Source: Acidobacteriota bacterium (GTDB taxonomy: Bacteria > Acidobacteriota > UBA6911 > RPQK01 > JAJDTT01). Taken from it: 64,000 bases of DNA. Where the stretch lies: NCBI GenBank assembly GCA_965209055.1, contig OZ242374.1:4192001-4256000 (forward strand). Reading direction: 5' to 3'. The notes below the pieces were generated by a model that searched no databases, was not told the DNA's origin, and saw only the letters and a program-made list of their open reading frames with translations. Below, piece after piece: positions 30,133 through 43,569 of the stretch (the stretch's first letter is position 1; each line of letters begins with the position of its first letter). Both the position numbers and the translations under genes were made by a program.

Positions 30133-31254
30133 CTAATACGACAGCGACCGGGAATCGAGCCGGTGGATCGTCGCCGCTTTCATGGCGTCCCAGTCGACTT
30201 CCACCCCCAGGCCGGGCCCCGATGGCGCGACGACATGTCCGTCGGGACCGGTGCGGATCACGTCGTGCATCCCGTATTCGTACGGTTCCCACGGGACCGC
30301 CTGCTCGAAATAGGTGCTCAGTCCGGTCCCCAGCATCAGGTGGAGGTTGGCGGCGGAGACCAGCGTGGTGCCCCAGGCCATGACCTCGCAGCGCATACCC
30401 GCGGCTTTCGCTGCGGCCAGGTACTTCCGGCCCCCTGTGAAGCCGCCGGCGACTGCGACGTCGGTCCGGGCCGCCGTCCAACATTGGGTCGCCACTGCGT
30501 GTTTGAATGCCGTCAGGTCCTGAAGCCAATTCCCCGAGGGAATGACCGGAACCCCAACGCTCTGGGTCAGCTCGCGATAACCCGGCAGGTCGTAGTCAAA
30601 CAGAGGAGCTTCGAACCAGGTGAATCCCAAGTCGTGCAGCTCTGCGCCGACCCGCTTGGCGCTCTGCAGGTCGTAGTTGTTTTCCGCGTCCAACATGAAG
30701 GCCACACCGTCGCCGAATTCCTTGCGGGCGGCGCGGGCCAGCTCCAGGTCCTTTTCCGGAAGGCACCAGCAGTGGAACTTCACGGCCGAAAAGCCGCGCT
30801 CGATCATTTCTTCGATAAAGCGGAGGTACGTCGGCACGTCGTCCAGCATCGGCGTGCTGGCATACGATGGGATTCGATCCATTGCTCCTCCCAAGAGTTG
30901 ATAGAGGGGTTTTCCGGCGGCCTTTCCCCTCAAGTCCCACAACGCGATGTCGATGACGGACAGGGCTTGCGGCGGAAGGGGAAAGACCCGCGGCCACAGG
31001 CTTTTCCAGATCTCTTCCCGCGCCGTGGCGTCCCGGCCGACCACCGCGGGGATCAGGTGCCGCAATGTCTCGCAGGTGTAGCGATCAAAATCGTAGGACG
31101 TGCTGTTCCAAACGCCGCCGATGCCCTCATGGCCGTCCTTCGTCGTGATCCGGACGATGGTATGGGTCGTGTACTGCTCATCCAGGTCGTGCGACCACGT
31201 AAAGCGCTGAACTTTCGGCGCCACGACCATGACTTCGACACGTTCGATCTGCAT
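30133..31254 (-). CDS. Mandelate racemase/muconate lactonizing enzyme family protein
   Basis: IDIALWDLRGK..GKPLYQLLGG, MLDAE, WFEAP, PSGPGLGVEVD. Confidence 0.9.
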   Translation of the reverse strand: MQIERVEVMVVAPKVQRFTWSHDLDEQYTTHTIVRITTKDGHEGIGGVWNSTSYDFDRYTCETLRHLIPAVVGRDATAREEIWKSLWPRVFPLPPQALSVIDIALWDLRGKAAGKPLYQLLGGAMDRIPSYASTPMLDDVPTYLRFIEEMIERGFSAVKFHCWCLPEKDLELARAARKEFGDGVAFMLDAENNYDLQSAKRVGAELHDLGFTWFEAPLFDYDLPGYRELTQSVGVPVIPSGNWLQDLTAFKHAVATQCWTAARTDVAVAGGFTGGRKYLAAAKAAGMRCEVMAWGTTLVSAANLHLMLGTGLSTYFEQAVPWEPYEYGMHDVIRTGPDGHVVAPSGPGLGVEVDWDAMKAATIHRLDSRSLSY

Positions 31255-31393
31255 GAGGACCGTCCTCCGGGGGGGTGGGGGCTCTACCGTAACGGCGCTC
31301 GTACCGGCCACAACCGGCCCCTTCTCCCTCTGATCCTGTCACTCTTCCGATCAGGGTTCCTGGCGACGAAACGTTCTTGAAAACGCAGGACGA

Positions 31394-31546
31394 TGTCAAG
31401 GGAGCCCGCCCGGGGCCGGTGCTTGACACGCGGTAAAAAAGCGAACCTAATGCTCCGAAGCGTTCCTCAACGCACGGATGCCCGGAGCCGTTGCGGCAGC
31501 GCATGCTCCGGGCCGGTCACAACGGATCGAGGGGATCGACCATGCA
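31394..31546 (+). promoter_or_regulatory. Conserved promoter + structured leader, copy 1 (candidate cis-regulatory RNA)
   Basis: TGTCAAG-N21-CTTGACA, then a 77-nt core 73/77 identical to the copy at 34133-34057. Confidence 0.75.
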
Positions 31547-32657
31547 GCAATCGATCACCAGCGTCGCCCGGAATGTCGATGACCTGACCGCGGTTTGGAG
31601 CGGTGGCGAACGCACCCGTCTTCCCTACCTCTGGCTGCGCGACAATTGCGGTTGCAGCGAGTGCCGCGTCGTGCAGACCACGGAGAAGCGGTTCCACATC
31701 TTCCGGGTCGCCAAGGACCTGAGACCGTTGCAGGTCAGCATCGAACGCACCGGATCCGAGCACGAAGCCATCTCCATCGCCTGGCCGGACGGACACCGCA
31801 CGCGCTTTCGGTCACGCGAGATCCACGGCCTCCTGAGCCGGCCTCGTTTGGACCTGCGCTACTGGGACAGCCGGTTCCAGCCGCGCAAGTACGACTATCA
31901 ACGGTTCCTGGCGGACGACAGCACGGCGGCGGAGATGATCGAGGAGATTCTGCGGACCGGGGTCTGCGTGCTGGTCGACGCCCCCACGGATCCGGATTCG
32001 TCGGAGCAGCTCGCGACCCGTTTGGGACCGATCCGCGAAGTGCTGTTCGAACGCATCCACAACGTCGTGGTCGACCCCAAGGGATACAGCATCGCGCACA
32101 CGGATCTGGCGGTCGCGCCGCACAACGACTTTACCAGCTACAACTGGCCGCCCAGCGTGCAGGCACTGCACATGCTGGTGAACGAATGCGAAGGCGGCGA
32201 GTCTTGCGTCGTGGACGGCTTCGGCGTGCTCAACGAACTACGCAACGATCACCCCGGCAAGTTCGACGTGCTTTGCGCGGTGCCGGTGCCTTTTCGCCTC
32301 TTCAGCGAAGAGTACGAGTGCTACGCGGCCAACCCCATGGTCGAGCTGGACAGCGGCGGCGAGATCAGGTTGCTGCGCTTCAACACCCAGCAAATGCAGG
32401 CCATTCCCCTGTCTGAGCCTCGGCTGGGCGACTTTTACGCCGCCTACCACGAGCTGTCCAGGCGCATCAATGACCCCAACGCCCAGGCTTCCGTCCGGTT
32501 GGAGGGCGGGCAGATTCTGCTGTGCGCCGGGCACCGTGTGCTGCACGGCCGCACCGCGCTGCGCTCCAAGGGGCGCCGCCACCTGCAGGACGCCTACTTC
32601 GAGCACGACAACGTGCGCAACCACCTGAGGTTGCTGCGCCGCACCGGCCGGATCTGA
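31542..32657 (+). CDS. Fe(II)/2OG dioxygenase, gamma-butyrobetaine hydroxylase (BBOX/TMLH/TmpA)-like
   Basis: WLRDNCGCSEC...WPDGH N-terminal Zn domain; PHND (HxD); RVLHGR; RHLQDAY. Confidence 0.92.
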   Translation: MQQSITSVARNVDDLTAVWSGGERTRLPYLWLRDNCGCSECRVVQTTEKRFHIFRVAKDLRPLQVSIERTGSEHEAISIAWPDGHRTRFRSREIHGLLSRPRLDLRYWDSRFQPRKYDYQRFLADDSTAAEMIEEILRTGVCVLVDAPTDPDSSEQLATRLGPIREVLFERIHNVVVDPKGYSIAHTDLAVAPHNDFTSYNWPPSVQALHMLVNECEGGESCVVDGFGVLNELRNDHPGKFDVLCAVPVPFRLFSEEYECYAANPMVELDSGGEIRLLRFNTQQMQAIPLSEPRLGDFYAAYHELSRRINDPNAQASVRLEGGQILLCAGHRVLHGRTALRSKGRRHLQDAYFEHDNVRNHLRLLRRTGRI

Positions 32658-32759
32658 AGGCCGCAAACCCGCGGACATGCTCCGAATTCCGAGCCCGACC
32701 GTCAAGCCGGCATCAGAGCCGGTTTGCGGCGGCCCGAACCTGCTCACGGATGCGGGCGC

Positions 32760-34061
32760 CTACACCGTCGCGTCCAGGCCCCGGGCGAAAGCGATCTCGC
32801 GGGCGCTGGGGTTCACTGAGGGGCGGAAGGGAACCTCGCACACCCGTGCGCGGTCCGGCCGGCCCGCCTCGCTGGCGTATTCGTCGGGCAGCCACACCGT
32901 GAGCTCCGTGCCGACGGCCGACTTCCCGGGGGGCACGTACCCGAGCGCTATGTTGCACCCCAGTTCGGGGGAGTGCCACGGCGACGTGAGGTAGCCGATG
33001 GGATCGCCGCCGTCCGCGTCCGACACGAGCCAGAAGTCCGGAGCATATTCGTCGATGGGGCTCCCGCCCAGCGTCATCCCCACCATGACCATCGCGAACG
33101 GACAACGCCCGGCGTCGAGCTCGGCGCGCTGGCGCTCCAGCACGGCCCGCCCGATGTAGTCTCCCGGCTTCTTGCGCGGCACCTGGTAGGCCAGGTTGCA
33201 CTGGAACGGACTCGTCTCGTGGTCGATGTCCTGTCCCCACGACAGGATCCCGGCCTGGATCCTGCGCTGGTGGCCCGGCGCAATGACCATCAGTTGGTGC
33301 CTGTCCCCCGCGTCGAGCACCGCGCGCCACAGCTTCTCGGCGTGCAGCGTGGCGTCGCGAAGATAGATCTCATACCCCTTCTCGCCTGAGAACCCGGACT
33401 GGGAGACCACGACGGAACACCCCGCGATCTGCGCCTCGAGAATTCCGTAGTAGGGGATGTCCCGGATGCCCGCGCCCACCAGGTCGGTCATGAGATCGAG
33501 CGACTTCGGTCCCTGGATCTGCAAGGGACAGACGTCGATCTCGTCGATCTCCACCTCCATCCGAAGCCCGACGTTCACGCCCTGGAGCCAGTACAGGAGG
33601 TCGGAGTCGGCAAGCGAGAACCAGAACTCGTCCCGGGAGAGCCGCAGCAGCACCGGGTCGTTGAGAATGCCGCCCTTCTCGTTGCAGACGATGACGTACT
33701 TCGCGTGCATCGGCTCGATGCGCGTCGCGTCCCGGGTGATCACGTAGTCGGTGAACCGTTCCGCATCCGGCCCCTTGACGCGGATCTGCCGCTCCACCGC
33801 GACGTTCCACAGCGTGACGTCCCGGGTCAGCGCCTCGTGCTCCACCGCCGCGCCGCCGTCCTCGGGCCGCACGTAGCCGCGGGGGTGGTAGATGCGGTTG
33901 TACACGGTGGCCCGCCAGCAGCCCGCTTCATGCGACAGATGCCAATAGGGGGACTTTCGGACCCGGGTGGAAATGAGCAGCTCGGTCGGCGTGCGGCCGC
34001 TCTGGCGAAGGTTGATCGGGACGATCCTGTCGGACTGGTCCACGCTGATCGGTTGATGCAT
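32760..34061 (-). CDS. GcvT-family THF-dependent aminomethyltransferase/demethylase (DmdA-like)
   Basis: LWNVAVERQI, GGILNDPVLLRL, LQIQGPKS, SQSGFSGEKGYEIY, RRIQAGILSWGQD. Confidence 0.9.
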   Translation of the reverse strand: MHQPISVDQSDRIVPINLRQSGRTPTELLISTRVRKSPYWHLSHEAGCWRATVYNRIYHPRGYVRPEDGGAAVEHEALTRDVTLWNVAVERQIRVKGPDAERFTDYVITRDATRIEPMHAKYVIVCNEKGGILNDPVLLRLSRDEFWFSLADSDLLYWLQGVNVGLRMEVEIDEIDVCPLQIQGPKSLDLMTDLVGAGIRDIPYYGILEAQIAGCSVVVSQSGFSGEKGYEIYLRDATLHAEKLWRAVLDAGDRHQLMVIAPGHQRRIQAGILSWGQDIDHETSPFQCNLAYQVPRKKPGDYIGRAVLERQRAELDAGRCPFAMVMVGMTLGGSPIDEYAPDFWLVSDADGGDPIGYLTSPWHSPELGCNIALGYVPPGKSAVGTELTVWLPDEYASEAGRPDRARVCEVPFRPSVNPSAREIAFARGLDATV

Positions 34062-34223
34062 GGTCGATCCCCTCAATCCGTTGTGACCGGCCCGGAACAT
34101 GCACTGCAGCAACGGCTCCGGGCATCCGTGCGTCGAGCCTCCAACGCACGTGAACGATTCCCGGCATTAGGTGCGCTTTTCCTGCGCCTGTCAAGCAGCG
34201 GGCCCGGGCAGGCGTCCTTGACA
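34057..34223 (-). promoter_or_regulatory. Conserved promoter + structured leader, copy 2
   Basis: Inverted copy of 31394-31546 with the same TGTCAAG-N21-CTTGACA spacing and a short insertion. Confidence 0.75.
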
Positions 34224-34283
34224 AGGCCCTGCGCCTTCAATCACGCTGGAACTAAAGGAGCCCTGCTCAGGAGAGTGGCAAAC

Positions 34284-34880
34284 ATGCAAAAAATGGCACA
34301 GGTGAGCGGTCCGACGGTGAGCTTCACCAGTATGGCGGACGGCACCCGCGAGGATTACGAGTTGCTCGGGCGCCACGAGAAGGAATTCGCCGCCGGCACC
34401 GCCGACCGGGTGTTGGCGTATCTTCGCGAGTTGTCGGGTTCGCTCGCCGGCTACCAGGTCGACCGGCTGGAGCATTCTCTGCAGACCGCGACCCGCGCCT
34501 ACCGCGACGACGCGGAAGAGGAGCTGGTGGTGGCGGCGCTCCTGCACGACATCGACGACATGCTGGCCCCGCACAGCCACGGCGAGCTGTCCGCGCTGCT
34601 GCTGCGCCCCTACGTGACCGAACGAACGTACTGGATCGTCCGGCACCACGGCCTTTTCCAGCTCTACTACTACGCCCACCACGTGGGCGGCAACCGCAAC
34701 GCGCGCGACAAGTATCGCGATCATCCCTGGTATCGGGACGCCGTGGACTTCTGTCACCGCTGGGACCAGTGCGCGTTCGATCCCGACTACGATTCGCTGC
34801 CGCTGGAGTTCTTCGAGCCGATGGTGCGCCGCGTGTTTGCGCGCAAACCGTTCAGCCTGGCGCCGAGGAAGCGTTCCTGA
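34284..34880 (+). CDS. HD-domain protein (PhnZ/TmpB-like diiron oxygenase or phosphohydrolase)
   Basis: LEHSLQTATRA, ALLHD, HSHG, RHH, WDQ; AGGAGAG RBS. Confidence 0.88.
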   Translation: MQKMAQVSGPTVSFTSMADGTREDYELLGRHEKEFAAGTADRVLAYLRELSGSLAGYQVDRLEHSLQTATRAYRDDAEEELVVAALLHDIDDMLAPHSHGELSALLLRPYVTERTYWIVRHHGLFQLYYYAHHVGGNRNARDKYRDHPWYRDAVDFCHRWDQCAFDPDYDSLPLEFFEPMVRRVFARKPFSLAPRKRS

Positions 34881-40443: not shown

Positions 40444-43400
40444 ATGGCAAAGGACGCCACGGACGGTCTCAAGTACCTGCTGACCGCCCAGTTCTTCGGG
40501 GCCTTCAACGACAACGCCTGGAAGTTGATCGTCACCTTCCTGGCCATCAAGGCCGCCACGGCGCACCTGGCGCCCGGAGGTCCCGAATACCAGTCGGCGG
40601 CGCAACTCCAGACCGCCATCGCCTTCTGCGTCCTGACCATTCCCCTCATGGTCTTCTCGCTCCCGGCCGGCCTCCTGGCCGACCGGGCCAGCAAGAGGAC
40701 CGTTATCGTGGCCATGAAGATGGCGGAAGTGCTGCTCATGGGCAGTGCGGCGCTCTGCCTCTACGCGGCGCCCGGATCGACGCTGTTTCCGCTGGTGATC
40801 CTGGGCTTCATGGGCCTGCAGAGCGCTCTCTTCAGCCCCGCCAAGTACGGGATCCTTCCCGAGATGCTGTCCCACGACCGGCTGACCGCCGGGAACGCGC
40901 ACCTTGAGACCTGGACCTTTCTGGCCATCATCCTGGGGACGGCATCAGGCGGCCTGCTGCTTGACCTTTCGGGAGAGGCAGCCTGGTTGGCCGCGGCGGT
41001 CCTGGTTCCCGCGGCGATAGCAGGGCTTCTCATCTCCTTGCGTCTTCCCCCGGTGCCGGCGGCCCGTTCCGAAGGTGACTTGGGCGAGACCGTCCGCACC
41101 GCCTGGCGGGCCATCCGTCGGGAACGGGTTCTGGGTCTGGCCGTGGCCGGGTCCGTCGTCTACTGGACCATCGCGAGTCTTCTGGGCCAGGACATTCTAG
41201 TCTACGTCAAGTCGGTCCTGGGCCTCTCGGACACCCATGCGGGGATCCCTCTTGCCCTGTTCGGTCTGGGTGTGGGAGGCGGAAGCCTGATCACCGCCCG
41301 GCTCTCCCGAGGCAAGGTCGAGTACGGCGTGATCCCGCTGGGCGCCATCCTGATGGCAGGGAACTGCGTACTGTTGGCCCTGGTCGTGCCCGGATTCTAT
41401 GGGCTCCTGGCCTTTTCGACAGGGCTGGGTGTGGCCAGCGGAATGATCATCGTGCCACTCAACTCCCTGCTCCAATGGCGGGCTCCGGATCAACACCGGG
41501 GAGCCGTCATCGCGCTGGCCAACGTCTGGATCTTCGGAGGAATAACGGTGGGATCGCTGGGAGCGGCAGGCCTTGCCGCTCTGGGACTCTCGCCGGTATC
41601 CATCCTGCTGGTGGCGGCATTGGCGCTCTCGGCGGGTATGTTCTGGTCCGTCTCACTGCTTCCCGATGTCCTGCTTCGCCTGCTCCTGGTCCTGGCGACG
41701 CACTCCCTCTACCGGCTCCGGGTCGTGGGCCGGGACCAGGTTCCGGAGAAGGGAGGAGCGTTGCTGGTCCCCAACCACGTCTCCTTCGTCGATTTCGTCC
41801 TGCTCCTCGCCGTAATCGACCGTCCGATCCGATTTATCGTTCATCGAAAATACTATGAACGTTTCTACTTCAAGCCATTTATGAAGTCATTGGGGTGTAT
41901 TCCCATCTCCTCGTCCGGGGGGCCGCGGGAGATTCTGAGAGCACTGAGGGATGCCGGGAAACGCTTGGACCAGGGTGAGCTGGTCTGCATCTTCCCCGAG
42001 GGGCAGATCTCCCGTACCGGCACTCTTCTCCCCTTCAACCGGGGCCTGGAGCGGATTGTCCGGAACCGGCAGGCGCCCATCATTCCCGTCTACCTGGACC
42101 GGATCTGGGGCAGCATCTTCAGCTACGAGCGGAACCGGTTCGTCCTCAAGATTCCGCGGGAGATCCCCTACCACGTCACTCTGGCCTTCGGCGCCCCTCT
42201 GCCTTCCGGGACGGACGCGGGAACGATTCGCCAAGCCGTCCAGGAGCTCTCCTGCGCCGCGTGGAACCGCCGTCAGGAGGGCGCCCGGCCTTTGCACCGG
42301 GCCTTCGTGCACCGGGCCAGGACGCGTCCACTGACTCTCGCCTACGCCGACGAGAGCCGGCCCCGCCTGAACCGCATCAAGTCCCTGTCCGGCGCCGTGG
42401 CCCGGGCCCGGGCTCTCAAATCGGAATGGGCGGGACAGGAGAGAGTCGGGATCCTCCTGCCGTCCAGCGTCGACGCCGCCTTGATGAATCTGGCCTCCGC
42501 CCTGGCCTGCCGGGTGACCGTGAACCTGAACTACACCGCGGGCGCCCAAGGGATGGAGTCGGCCGTGGATCAAGCGGGGCTCGAGACCGTCGTGACCAGC
42601 CGCGACTTCTTGCAAGAGGCGAACCTGACCCCGCCCGGAAACGTCCGCCTCATCGACCTGGAGGATTTGACCGAACGCATCGGCGCCGGACTTCGGGCCA
42701 CCAGCCTGCTGGCCGCCCTGTTTCTTCCTTCCCGCTGGCTGGAGAAGCTGTGCGGCGCCACCCGTGTCCCCGGCGCCCACGACCTCATGACCATCATCTA
42801 CAGCAGCGGCGGCGCGGGAAACCCCAAGGGCGTGATGCTCACCCAGTTCAACCTGGATTCAAACATCACGGCGTTGGAACAGGTCCTCCGGACGAAACCG
42901 GCGGACCGGGTTCTGGGCATCCTTCCCCTCTTCCAGTCCTTCGGCGCCATGGCCTTCTGGTTCGCGGCCAAAAACGGCCTGGCTCTGCCCCTGCACCCCG
43001 ACCCGCTGGACGGTCCGGCCGTGGGCCGGCTGGTGGAGCGCTACCGGGTGAGCATCATGCTGGCCACTCCGGCCTCACTGCGGATCTACATGCGTTTGTG
43101 TTCCCCCGGGCAGCTCGGTTCGCTGCGGTTGTTGTTGACCGGCGCCGAAAAGCTGCCGGAAAAGTTGGCGGCGGCCTTCCAGTCACAGTTCGGGCTGCGG
43201 CCGCTGGAGGGTTACGGGACCGCCGAATGCGCCCCCGTCGTCTCCGTAAGCGTCCCCGACTACCGGGCGCCCGGCTTCTTCCAGCTCGGCTCCCGGCCGG
43301 GTCACGTGGGCCAACCGCTGCCCGGCGTGGCGGTGCGGGTCGTGGACCCGCAGAGCTTCGAACGCCTGCCGCCGGGGACCCCCGGGATGTTGCTGGTCAA

Positions 43401-43569
43401 GGGTCCCAACCTGATGCGGGGTTATCTGGGACGGGACGACCTGACGCGTAAGGCGATCCGGAACGGGTGGTACGTGACCGGCGACATCGGCCTGGTGCGC
43501 GAGGACGGGTTCGTGAAGATTACCGAACGCCGCGCCTACCGGGAGCAGGAGCAGGCTGCTATCCGATGA
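40444..43569 (+). CDS. aas: MFS (LplT)-acyltransferase-AMP-binding fusion (Aas-like), C-terminally short
   Basis: QFFGAFNDN, FSPAKYGILPE; PNHVSFVD, FPEG; EGYGTAEC, WYVTGD. Confidence 0.88.
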   Translation: MAKDATDGLKYLLTAQFFGAFNDNAWKLIVTFLAIKAATAHLAPGGPEYQSAAQLQTAIAFCVLTIPLMVFSLPAGLLADRASKRTVIVAMKMAEVLLMGSAALCLYAAPGSTLFPLVILGFMGLQSALFSPAKYGILPEMLSHDRLTAGNAHLETWTFLAIILGTASGGLLLDLSGEAAWLAAAVLVPAAIAGLLISLRLPPVPAARSEGDLGETVRTAWRAIRRERVLGLAVAGSVVYWTIASLLGQDILVYVKSVLGLSDTHAGIPLALFGLGVGGGSLITARLSRGKVEYGVIPLGAILMAGNCVLLALVVPGFYGLLAFSTGLGVASGMIIVPLNSLLQWRAPDQHRGAVIALANVWIFGGITVGSLGAAGLAALGLSPVSILLVAALALSAGMFWSVSLLPDVLLRLLLVLATHSLYRLRVVGRDQVPEKGGALLVPNHVSFVDFVLLLAVIDRPIRFIVHRKYYERFYFKPFMKSLGCIPISSSGGPREILRALRDAGKRLDQGELVCIFPEGQISRTGTLLPFNRGLERIVRNRQAPIIPVYLDRIWGSIFSYERNRFVLKIPREIPYHVTLAFGAPLPSGTDAGTIRQAVQELSCAAWNRRQEGARPLHRAFVHRARTRPLTLAYADESRPRLNRIKSLSGAVARARALKSEWAGQERVGILLPSSVDAALMNLASALACRVTVNLNYTAGAQGMESAVDQAGLETVVTSRDFLQEANLTPPGNVRLIDLEDLTERIGAGLRATSLLAALFLPSRWLEKLCGATRVPGAHDLMTIIYSSGGAGNPKGVMLTQFNLDSNITALEQVLRTKPADRVLGILPLFQSFGAMAFWFAAKNGLALPLHPDPLDGPAVGRLVERYRVSIMLATPASLRIYMRLCSPGQLGSLRLLLTGAEKLPEKLAAAFQSQFGLRPLEGYGTAECAPVVSVSVPDYRAPGFFQLGSRPGHVGQPLPGVAVRVVDPQSFERLPPGTPGMLLVKGPNLMRGYLGRDDLTRKAIRNGWYVTGDIGLVREDGFVKITERRAYREQEQAAIR

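Follow-up and report, generated by a model that had tools for sequence, protein, structure and literature searches.

Two neighbouring genes of the window (the whole 64,000-nt stretch of DNA analysed here) code for different enzymes, and still start behind almost the same promoter and leader sequence, arranged in inverted orientation. Why would this be so? A preliminary description regarded the two genes as unrelated and their common element as a candidate riboswitch. Our results favour another answer: it is reasonably probable that the element is a shared promoter/5'-UTR module of a three-gene catabolic cassette. This module has been duplicated, gene conversion has probably made its copies alike, and it is not shown to be a riboswitch.

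The duplication was confirmed by inverted-repeat search and by pairwise alignment, and proved longer than the 77 nt first noticed. The search yields two adjoining arm pairs: one of 92 nt that is 92% complementary (31466-31557 / 34046-34137) and one of 129 nt that is 73% complementary (31337-31465 / 34152-34280). The repeat therefore spans nearly both whole divergent intergenic regions plus approximately 15 nt of each coding sequence, and about 220 nt are duplicated per region (Table 1). Pairwise alignment exactly reproduces the 77-nt core with its four listed differences, and also shows that the GcvT copy carries a 14-nt insertion between the promoter-like part (-10-like box) and the core as compared to copy A. 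When the 81-nt core is compared by blastn with the complete 6.08-Mb genome, only two copies (100% and 94%) come up, and the next-best match has E=0.23; the two-copy repeat is far above chance expectation. The inverted repeat in the -35 region is present in both copies. Neither copy's promoter-like boxes are detected in a strict sigma-70 consensus scan, and a scan of 31200-34400 found no terminator-like sites. Three coordinates given earlier were corrected (dioxygenase ATG at 31542, GcvT-like ATG at 34061 on the minus strand, HD start at 34284).

Table 1. Features of the duplicated module and the surrounding genes.
Feature	Position	Strand	Remarks
Enolase-superfamily (MR_MLE) gene	30133..31254	-	Divergent from dioxygenase; outside the cassette in other phyla
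Copy A of module	31337..31557	+	Inverted-repeat arms I1 + I2, pairwise alignment; back-to-back -35-like boxes, -10-like box, 5' leader, first five dioxygenase codons
Copy A -35-like box, minus strand	31395-31400	-	TGTCAA (TTGACA on minus); sequence reading
Copy A -35-like box, plus strand	31423-31428	+	TTGACA; sequence reading
Copy A -10-like box	31446-31451	+	CCTAAT; sequence reading
Copy A hairpin P1	31480..31513	+	GCCCGGAGC (31480-31488) pairs with GCUCCGGGC (31505-31513); inner UGCG/CGCA stem
Copy A 3' tract and SD	31514..31541	+	Conserved tract CGGUCACAACGGAUC, then extended SD GAGGGGAUC (31529-31537), 4 nt before ATG
GBBH/TmpA-like Fe/2OG dioxygenase	31542..32657	+	371 aa
GcvT/DmdA-like aminomethyltransferase	32760..34061	-	433 aa; convergent with dioxygenase
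Copy B of module	34046..34280	-	Leader runs into GcvT-like gene; repeat search, alignment, folds
Copy B ATG	34061-34059	-
Copy B SD	34074-34069	-
Copy B P1 arms	34123-34115 and 34098-34090	-
Copy B -10-like box	34171-34166	-
Copy B -35-like box	34194-34189	-
Copy B opposite -35-like box	34218-34223		TTGACA, directed toward HD gene
HD-domain protein	34284..34880	+	198 aa; divergent from GcvT-like gene; weak PhnZ/TmpB relative

In two metatranscriptome runs, contigs of a relative (approximately 97% alike) extend from the GcvT 5' end through the leader as far as 34133, beyond which they run about 30 nt into unlike sequence. Since such libraries may hold DNA and the contigs show no starts, nothing on the transcription start site or on expression is derived from them.

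The dioxygenase matches Pfam TauD (1.2e-35) and GBBH-like_N (3.6e-11) and, among PDB entries, human GBBH (8.8e-38) and TmpA (1.6e-37). It stays below the equivalog cut-offs of NCBIfam for both GBBH (228.8 bits, cut-off 414.75) and TmpA (224.1 bits, cut-off 400), and its membership is at the superfamily level only. The GcvT-like gene matches Pfam GCV_T (1.2e-39) and GCV_T_C (1.4e-9) and scores 256 bits for NCBIfam DmdA, below the cut-off of 410. For the HD protein (Pfam HD, 3e-6) the NCBIfam scores are far below threshold (Phn-HD 38.1 bits, cut-off 214.6; TmpB 32.8 bits, cut-off 300), so that it does not qualify as TmpB or PhnZ by equivalog score; its PDB match to PhnZ (7.1e-5) is aligned over 50 residues only. 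The MR_MLE gene (Pfam MR_MLE_C 1.8e-41, MR_MLE_N 3.8e-14; NCBIfam dehydratase matches all sub-threshold) has a counterpart of 94% identity at the equivalent position in another genome of the genus, L078.

A similar gene pair is known from Leisingera caerulea, where the 2OG dioxygenase TmpA hydroxylates 2-(trimethylammonio)ethylphosphonate and the HD-domain diiron oxygenase TmpB next cleaves the C-P bond of the hydroxylated product (PMC8177086). As in that system, a GBBH-type Fe/2OG dioxygenase gene neighbours a PhnZ/TmpB-type HD gene. There are differences: the cassette proteins are far below the equivalog cut-offs (224 of 400 and 33 of 300 bits), the dioxygenase is equally close to human GBBH and to TmpA, and a GcvT/DmdA-like gene belongs to the cassette. 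The available part of PMC8177086 does not mention a leader RNA for tmpA. The combination of HD, dioxygenase and GcvT genes points to the breakdown of a quaternary amine: the substrate is probably a host-derived trimethylammonium compound, and might be a phosphonate as in the TmpA/TmpB pathway.

Gene order was compared in the best 80 of the 149 related dioxygenase loci found, which are labelled as Acidobacteriota, Gemmatimonadota/Longimicrobiales/Ca. Palauibacter, Gammaproteobacteria and Spirochaetia. Many carriers are MAGs from sponges. Among these best 80, the HD gene lies divergently upstream of the dioxygenase gene in 67 (orthologues with 79-89% identity) and in 0/7 loci of the window's own genus. 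The 1.5-kb flanks hold a GcvT-like gene in 32 of the 80, convergent downstream in 25 and beyond the HD gene in seven. Judged by gene order, the two leader-bearing genes are thus not unrelated, as had been assumed, but members of one conserved HD / dioxygenase / GcvT cassette. Four-fold degenerate sites are still 0.58-0.83 identical across phyla, so the transfer is not ancient. This identity also suits the possibility that the leader has no function apart from its promoter and SD, having spread because the cassette was transferred recently and being present twice because of a recent duplication; weighed with the findings below, we consider this unlikely.

The preliminary description suggested looking for homologues outside this genome, and these exist well beyond it, both in the genus and at loci of other phyla. 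The element is present in 9/9 genomes of the genus; a search of 67 other genomes of the order gave no match below E=0.09. A covariance model of the leader matches just upstream of the dioxygenase start in 78 of the best 80 of 149 loci; these matches end 17 nt inside the coding sequence and 58 have E<1e-4. Whole-genome scans of five other genomes place the leader only at dioxygenase genes or at one dioxygenase fragment. Of 26 GcvT orthologues from elsewhere (60-91% amino acid identity), 25 come without the leader and one has a weak match of 16.9 bits; a GcvT-like gene carries it in the window's own genus only. By this distribution the leader is native to the dioxygenase gene family only, and its association with GcvT is a duplication in one genus; both genes come from one cassette. 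The argument that one leader before two unrelated genes signals a riboswitch consequently fails, since the genes make up a single mobile cassette and only one of them has the leader natively.

Duplication, distribution and gene order of the module are directly observed, and the following mechanism would account for them. The repeat would consist of the divergent promoter region and the 5' untranslated leader of a cassette for a PhnZ/TmpB-like HD oxygenase, a GBBH/TmpA-like 2-oxoglutarate dioxygenase and a GcvT/DmdA-like methyl-removing enzyme. Other bacteria have a single module between the HD gene and the dioxygenase, whereas in the Acidobacteriota-labelled genus a second, inverted copy would have been fused at the GcvT-like start codon with the HD gene carried along. 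In this genome the convergent dioxygenase-GcvT pair has one copy on either side, the two copies being 2.5 kb from each other. Both genes would be under the same kind of promoter and the same 85-100-nt leader, and so would be expressed together. The leader itself would have P1 as its one stable hairpin, besides an unpaired conserved tract and an extended Shine-Dalgarno sequence, and would set mRNA stability and/or translation efficiency. Finally, the 94-95% identity of the copies would stem from recent duplication, or from gene conversion between nearby inverted copies, rather than from the constraint of a ligand-binding fold. Counted against this explanation are that a leader surviving transfer among four phyla suits a host-independent sensor, as well as the compensated pairing in P1, the better-kept 80 nt upstream and the boxes failing the strict promoter scan.

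As to the rate of change, mean identity within the genus (28 pairs) is 0.90 for the 77-nt core, 0.88 for four-fold degenerate sites of the GcvT gene and 0.84 for the promoter part. Core and four-fold sites being so close, the near-identity of the two copies is not a sign of constraint in this comparison, with the caveat that at a GC3 of 0.86-0.90 the four-fold sites of a gene are not strictly neutral. Change at about this pace speaks against a riboswitch and in favour of a functionless leader. Within this genome the copies are 94% identical, against 80-90% between the dioxygenase leader and leaders of other species; the GcvT leader and its orthologues are 0.86-0.92 identical. The copies, about 2.5 kb apart, are closer to each other than sister-species orthologues are, which points to an inverted segmental duplication, probably with gene conversion. 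A functionless leader is less compatible with the finding that the 80 nt upstream of the gene are kept better than the 80 nt of non-coding control downstream (in pairs whose four-fold identity is below 0.85, 0.54-0.71 matches per 80 nt as against 0.45-0.56). Extra synonymous conservation in codons 2-7, which would hint at a start-codon hairpin, is unexceptional (0.85-1.0 against a gene-wide mean of 0.86).

Stem P1 of the preliminary description holds up as a recurring hairpin in most relatives. It is part of the minimum-free-energy fold in 4/4 folded stretches (GCCCGGAGC / GYUCCGGGC), with modest z-scores of -2.69 and -1.08 for the 106/108-nt stretches and -2.13 and -0.25 for the 81-nt cores. 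Hairpins at the P1 site in relatives have a mean z of -1.7, with z<-2 in 22/53 and z<-1 in 37/53. Pairing is kept with a different sequence in several lineages: G-C became A-U in L120, L111-115 and L142, and C-G became U-A in L083 and L146. Cells changed on both sides of P1 exceed all 500 shuffles in both alignments: 26 against 7.9 and 31 against 15.5. Together with the pairing kept across lineages, this makes a role of the hairpin at the RNA level likely, at odds with a functionless leader, as are the fold energies below shuffles. L-INS-i was used for alignment. The measures counting pairs and pair types in P1 are not above shuffles in the sequence-only alignment, and under a tree-aware null no pair is significant (best P1 pair E=24, best of all pairs E=5.9). 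This null is a home-made, branch-preserving approximation of R-scape with limited power (approximately 5-6 substitutions per column), applied to 58 dioxygenase-linked leaders of 68 aligned; its outcome is in line with a functionless leader. A first tree null, in which column substitutions were re-placed independently, was discarded for its unrealistically low paired fraction (0.37-0.43), which arose because root states were drawn independently.

P1 varies in length and loop while its base is kept, with conserved unpaired tracts on both sides. In Spirochaetia-labelled loci its interior has shrunk to a 3-nt loop; P1 base and 3' tract persist where the interior is deleted, which a functionless leader would not explain. 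Losses occur as well. The 5' arm of P1 is missing in L089, L095 and L101 and the whole leader in L119, L136, L144 and L148, while two members of the window's own genus, L084 and L082, have the leader either deleted or replaced. So many deletion variants favour a functionless leader.

These data also bear on a translational riboswitch, in which the leader would bind a small molecule (a trimethylammonium compound, betaine, phosphonate or phosphate) linked to the substrate or product of the cassette, and alter access to the SD. Such a reading would fit a leader that accompanies its gene at loci with four phylum labels and, in one genus, also came to serve a second pathway gene, as well as the kept base, variable loop and flanking unpaired tracts of P1 and its both-sided changes above shuffles. 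Against it, one helix at most is supported, and this is not significant once phylogeny is counted; the interior of P1 can be as small as 3 nt, three loci lack its 5' arm and at least four the leader, which in addition is native to a single gene family. We rate the riboswitch as very improbable.

The other pairings proposed earlier do not strengthen it. The second stem (GGUC..GAUY/GAUC-GACC) is not above shuffles, one of its pairs being unpaired in 35/60 sequences, and neither is the CGUUG/CAACG pseudoknot (paired in 58% of cells). The changes from G-C to G-U, read as preserving pairing, come from a single within-genome comparison; genus-wide no proposed helix beats shuffles. In 15 leaders of the genus, covariation does not exceed shuffles for P0, P1, P1b, the second stem, the pseudoknot, the start-codon hairpin or the local CCGG/YYGG hairpin, and RNAalifold finds 0 compensatory pairs. 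Local P2 and the start-codon hairpin are likewise not above shuffles, pairing of the P1 3' arm with the SD is unsupported, and a search for stacked covarying pairs among all columns returns scattered pairs only and no new helix. Lack of covariation beyond this genome had been named beforehand as a reason to abandon the riboswitch; with no pair significant under the tree-aware null this largely applies, though homologues exist. As far as these comparisons reach, there is neither an aptamer fold with covariation-supported helices nor an expression platform, whether a terminator or an alternative pairing by which the SD is masked or released.

The proposed likeness to SAH and SAM/SAH riboswitches comes down to short words in common. 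Searching 4227 Rfam families gave 0 matches at gathering scores over the 64 kb, and three at E<=10 within 31300-34300, none of them in either leader; the expectation that no known family would match was correct in this respect. Because no known family matches, a riboswitch here, if real, would be new. A comparable setting is that of the proX motif, which precedes glycine/proline betaine transporter genes, is regarded as a riboswitch candidate and is described with a stem that can occlude the ribosome-binding site (PMC8632094). Both are short 5' leaders of a quaternary-amine gene, in both the ribosome-binding site is conserved, and for both translational control has been proposed. If Rfam 15 includes the proX motif, the searches above gave no match to it. 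By the description given there, however, proX is set apart: our leader has no supported SD pairing and occurs at another gene family and in other hosts. In the literature passages covered, on TmpA/TmpB, sponge symbionts, betaine riboswitch candidates and Palauibacter, no description of this leader was found.

We assign an equally low probability to a small riboswitch or self-contained RNA sensor formed by P1 and the conserved CGGUCACAACGGA tract beside the SD. If it existed, this sensor would respond to a trimethylammonium or phosphonate compound from the host and move between phyla as a unit with the catabolic cassette, and the one Acidobacteriota-labelled genus would offer a case of natural sensor re-use through promoter-leader duplication onto the next pathway enzyme. 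A leader that senses a metabolite would also offer a way to learn what these uncultured bacteria obtain from their host.

Across the best 80 of 149 loci, no part of the leader is kept more widely than the 3' tract and SD. By sequence reading, 8/9 positions of GAGGGGAUC pair with GGAUCACCUCCUU, the 16S 3' tail of this genome. An upstream ORF starting at the ATG within GGATGCCC was rejected: other lineages have GACG, CAGG, GGCG or GTTA instead of this ATG, and length changes in P1 are not multiples of three.

Conserved tracts of this kind might alternatively serve a trans-acting factor: an RNA-binding protein or small RNA on P1 and the GGA tracts, or a transcription factor on DNA palindromes (the two inverted TTGACA boxes; GCCCGGAGC..GCTCCGGGC). 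GGA-containing tracts (CACGGAUG, AACGGAU, GAGGGGA) do flank P1, the TSS-proximal block GGTAGCGTTCGCGTGCGC is common to loci from Spirochaetia-labelled through Acidobacteriota-labelled, and both copies have the -35-region inverted repeat. The member genes of the cassette include no regulator, though, and a host-specific factor fits poorly with the spread over four phyla. P1 arms that vary in sequence yet keep pairing, G-U pairs included, are unsuitable as a DNA operator, and the inverted TTGACA boxes are more simply the -35 boxes of two divergent promoters. Such a factor is therefore quite unlikely in our view. CsrA-type control, which the GGA motifs had prompted, was rejected: CsrA is found in 0/5 leader-carrying genomes, with control genomes positive.

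The favoured promoter/5'-UTR module is in many respects an ordinary one. Ordinary bacterial 5' UTRs can combine a stabilising stem-loop with a strong Shine-Dalgarno sequence, and this leader likewise has one GC-rich hairpin, an unpaired tract and an SD matching the 16S tail. Unlike ordinary 5' UTRs, leader and promoter have stayed attached to the GBBH/TmpA-like gene through transfers among four labelled phyla, and an inverted duplication has given a second pathway gene the same control region.

A repeat search finds a stretch of about 220 nt twice in the window, on opposite strands, once at the dioxygenase gene (copy A) and once at the GcvT-like gene (copy B). Repeat arms, pairwise alignment, genome-wide blastn and folds confirm the duplicated inverted element of the preliminary description as an observation, and the alignment also recovers its 77-nt core with four differences between the copies. 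Beyond the core, the likeness takes in the promoter-like region on the upstream side and the opening five codons of each gene on the downstream side; copy B has 14 nt inserted between the promoter-like part and the core. Across the whole 6.08-Mb genome blastn returns only these two copies of the core. The candidate promoter boxes fail a strict consensus scan. The best reading, which we hold to be reasonably probable, is that the module is the shared promoter-plus-leader of a mobile HD/dioxygenase/GcvT cassette. In the window's genus it would have been duplicated in inverted orientation, bringing a second pathway gene under the common control region, and recency or gene conversion would have kept or made the two copies in the window's genome alike. 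Upstream of copy A weak similarity runs on (window 31262-31335) in sequence that corresponds, at copy B, to the HD gene's 5' leader and opening codons; an HD gene once present on the copy-A side may have left this piece behind.

Positions of the repeat arms, the leader hairpin and the genes in the window
Feature	Position	Strand	Remark
Inverted-repeat arm pair	31466-31557 / 34046-34137		92 nt, 92% complementary
Inverted-repeat arm pair	31337-31465 / 34152-34280		129 nt, 73% complementary
Leader hairpin P1, copy A	31480-31513	+	
Enolase-superfamily gene	30133-31254	-	divergent from dioxygenase
TauD-fold dioxygenase with GBBH-like N-domain	31542-32657	+	below every NCBIfam equivalog cut-off
GcvT/DmdA-like aminomethyltransferase	32760-34061	-	
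HD-domain protein	34284-34880	+	weak relative of PhnZ/TmpB
1041-aa ORF	40444-43569	+	fusion of MFS transporter, acyltransferase and AMP-binding enzyme domains

The dioxygenase is equally close to human gamma-butyrobetaine dioxygenase (8.8e-38) and to TmpA (1.6e-37), and the GcvT-like and HD genes form a divergent pair. The TmpA/TmpB pair hydroxylates 2-(trimethylammonio)ethylphosphonate and then cleaves the C-P bond (PMC8177086). By analogy the cassette might perform similar chemistry followed by demethylation.

Gene order was read by tblastn of the window proteins against the best 80 of 149 dioxygenase loci (L078-L157). In 67 of these 80 (64 with at least 150 aa aligned) an HD gene is placed upstream of the dioxygenase in divergent orientation, at a median start-codon distance of 185 nt; none of the seven loci of the window's own genus has it there. 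In 25 of the 80 the 1.5-kb downstream flank holds a convergent GcvT-like gene, and in seven, all Spirochaetia-labelled, the GcvT-like gene lies beyond the HD gene; on one metagenomic contig (L071) the HD gene is directly upstream of the GcvT-like gene in the same direction. From this order it follows that the three genes form one cassette and that the HD-dioxygenase intergenic region is the element's home. The window's genus has a second copy of this region, now between the GcvT-like and HD genes, with its leader side fused to the GcvT start codon. GcvT orthologues elsewhere start ATG ATC CAT CAA CCG ACC AGC and the dioxygenase starts ATG CAT CAC TCG ATC AGC, a likeness that could have served as junction. 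In the window's genome and one other of the genus the dioxygenase and the GcvT-like gene converge, which is the canonical arrangement of the cassette, and therefore the two module copies are inverted, 2.5 kb apart.

Among the best 80 of 149 loci, protein identity across MAGs of four labels (Acidobacteriota, Gemmatimonadota/Longimicrobiales/Ca. Palauibacter, Gammaproteobacteria and Spirochaetia) is 74-95% for the dioxygenase, 79-89% for HD and 83-98% for the GcvT-like protein, the 98% coming from a 58-residue end fragment. This looks like a catabolic cassette transferred fairly recently between phyla. Cross-phylum identity at four-fold degenerate sites is 0.58-0.83, so the transfers are not ancient. 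Several genomes hold two or three dioxygenase paralogues.

All nine genomes of the window's genus have the core, eight of them ahead of the GcvT-like gene and seven ahead of a dioxygenase or dioxygenase fragment. A covariance model (R1) built from 15 leaders of the genus gives no match below E=0.09 in 67 other genomes of the order. Among metagenomic GcvT orthologues (60-91% protein identity) 25 of 26 lack an R1 match, the lone match is weak (16.9 bits), and the upstream regions are visibly unrelated to the leader. At the dioxygenase (one-genome-per-species contigs, best 80 of 149 relatives, 74-95% identity) R1 matches 78 of the 80 loci, ending exactly 17 nt inside the coding region, with E<1e-4 in 58 of them. 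The record titles of the 80 name Acidobacteriota (one record of this group being labelled Aminicenantes), Longimicrobiales/Ca. Palauibacter/Gemmatimonadota, Gammaproteobacteria and Spirochaetia. In whole-genome scans of five of these genomes, every copy of the leader adjoins a dioxygenase gene or a dioxygenase fragment of 69 codons. Low-GC marine GcvT-like orthologues (L064-L068, L072, L075, L077) have a conserved upstream region of their own with TTACACTTCTGTAGTAAA, unrelated to the window leader, which looks like an operator.

That the leader lies outside known RNA families is borne out by cmscan against Rfam 15: no match reaches gathering scores over the whole window, and none of the three matches at E<=10 in 31300-34300 falls inside either leader. 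The literature searched, supplementary files aside, yielded no published description.

The minimum-free-energy structures of all stretches folded contain stem P1, proposed from the sequence; their z-scores are modest (-0.25 to -2.69). When the P1 segments of 53 distinct variants are folded, most form a hairpin in the corresponding position (mean z -1.7; z<-2 in 22). Cells changed on both sides number 26 against 7.9 in shuffles in the model-fitted alignment (66 distinct rows) and 31 against 15.5 in a sequence-only MAFFT alignment (68 rows), values reached by 0 of 500 shuffles in either case. On the measures that the covariation tool treats as robust to relatedness, P1 in the MAFFT alignment is not above shuffles (pairs 7 vs 7.4, pair types 21 vs 23). 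An R-scape-like test, using a G-test with APC correction and 150 null alignments in which the Fitch substitutions of each branch are reassigned to random columns, finds no significant pair (best P1 pair E=24, best anywhere E=5.9). Its tree came from dioxygenase coding sequences; of the 68 aligned leaders it took the 58 that belong to a dioxygenase, omitting the copies at GcvT genes and L088, which is interrupted. The arms vary by lineage (GCCCGGAGC/GCUCCGGGC, GUCCGG/UCGGAC, GCCCGA/UCGGGC, CCGGAAC/GUUCCGG, GUCCC/GGGAC), down to a bare CCCGG-GUU-CCGGG under the Spirochaetia label. Uncompensated mismatches are A.C in L085, L092 and L113, C.C in L015, L078 and L014, and C.A in L088, L079 and L100. 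Of the other proposed pairings, neither the second stem (one pair unpaired in 35 of 60 sequences) nor the CGUUG/CAACG pseudoknot (58% of cells paired) exceeds shuffles. A scan of all column pairs reveals no further stacked covariation. Three more candidates, a local GGUC/GAYY hairpin, a GAUCGA/UCGAUC hairpin around the start codon and pairing of the P1 3' arm with the Shine-Dalgarno sequence, were likewise not above shuffles.

Across loci the leader is not conserved as a whole. Three Palauibacter-labelled loci (L089, L095, L101) lack the P1 5' arm, and in two genomes of the window's own genus (L084, L082) a deletion or replacement has removed the dioxygenase leader and left the copy at the GcvT gene intact. 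Four loci (L119, L136, L144, L148) have a -10-like box (CTGATAG) 3-4 nt before the dioxygenase ATG and therefore no leader, which suggests leaderless mRNAs; in all four, no more than about 100 nt separates the dioxygenase from the end of a GcvT-like gene downstream. The part retained almost everywhere is CGGUCACAACGGA-N2-GAGGGGAUCGACC-AUG, in large part because GAGGGGAUC, which can pair at 8 of 9 positions with the 3' tail of this genome's 16S rRNA, is an extended Shine-Dalgarno sequence. The leader probably has one genuine RNA hairpin together with this strong, extended Shine-Dalgarno, and its role is presumably in mRNA stability or translation efficiency. A ligand-sensing riboswitch, as first proposed, is very unlikely: the leader lacks the defining features, having no multi-helix fold backed by covariation, no supported switching pair, one family as its sole native gene association and frequent partial deletions. 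We also give little credence to a platform for a trans-acting factor; CsrA is absent in all five leader-carrying genomes searched, and domain searches of the window proteins found no regulator gene near the module. A passive passenger, too, is an unlikely account of the leader.

In another genome of the genus (L088/L016) the leader and first few dioxygenase codons lie at L088:304-395 and the remainder (residues 5-371) starts at 1501, with about 1.1 kb, possibly a mobile element, inserted just past the start codon; translation from the ATG would meet a stop after 15 codons. Two sponge metatranscriptome runs hold contigs of a relative about 97% alike, spanning the interior of the GcvT-like gene and the leader to 34133 and running some 30 nt further into unlike sequence; the libraries may contain DNA and transcript ends are not shown, so these contigs are given no weight.

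In 28 pairwise comparisons of GcvT loci within the genus, the core averages 0.90 identity and the promoter part 0.84, with four-fold degenerate sites at 0.88; thus the core is not detectably more constrained than synonymous sites. Among pairs with four-fold identity below 0.85, matches kept per 80 nt are 0.54-0.71 upstream of the gene against 0.45-0.56 downstream, a sign of some constraint, chiefly close to the start codon. Codons 2-7 show no exceptional third-position conservation. The two copies in the window's genome are 94% identical, against 80-90% between its dioxygenase leader and those of other species, a pattern that fits recent duplication or gene conversion. In a second genome of the genus the GcvT and dioxygenase leaders (L014 vs L018) are only about 80% alike by eye count, against the 94%. 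Variants in that genome's dioxygenase leader (GAGCGGCUGCGG, GCUCCCGGC) also occur in a third species, in the leader of its GcvT gene (L015), which hints at repeated exchange between the copies.
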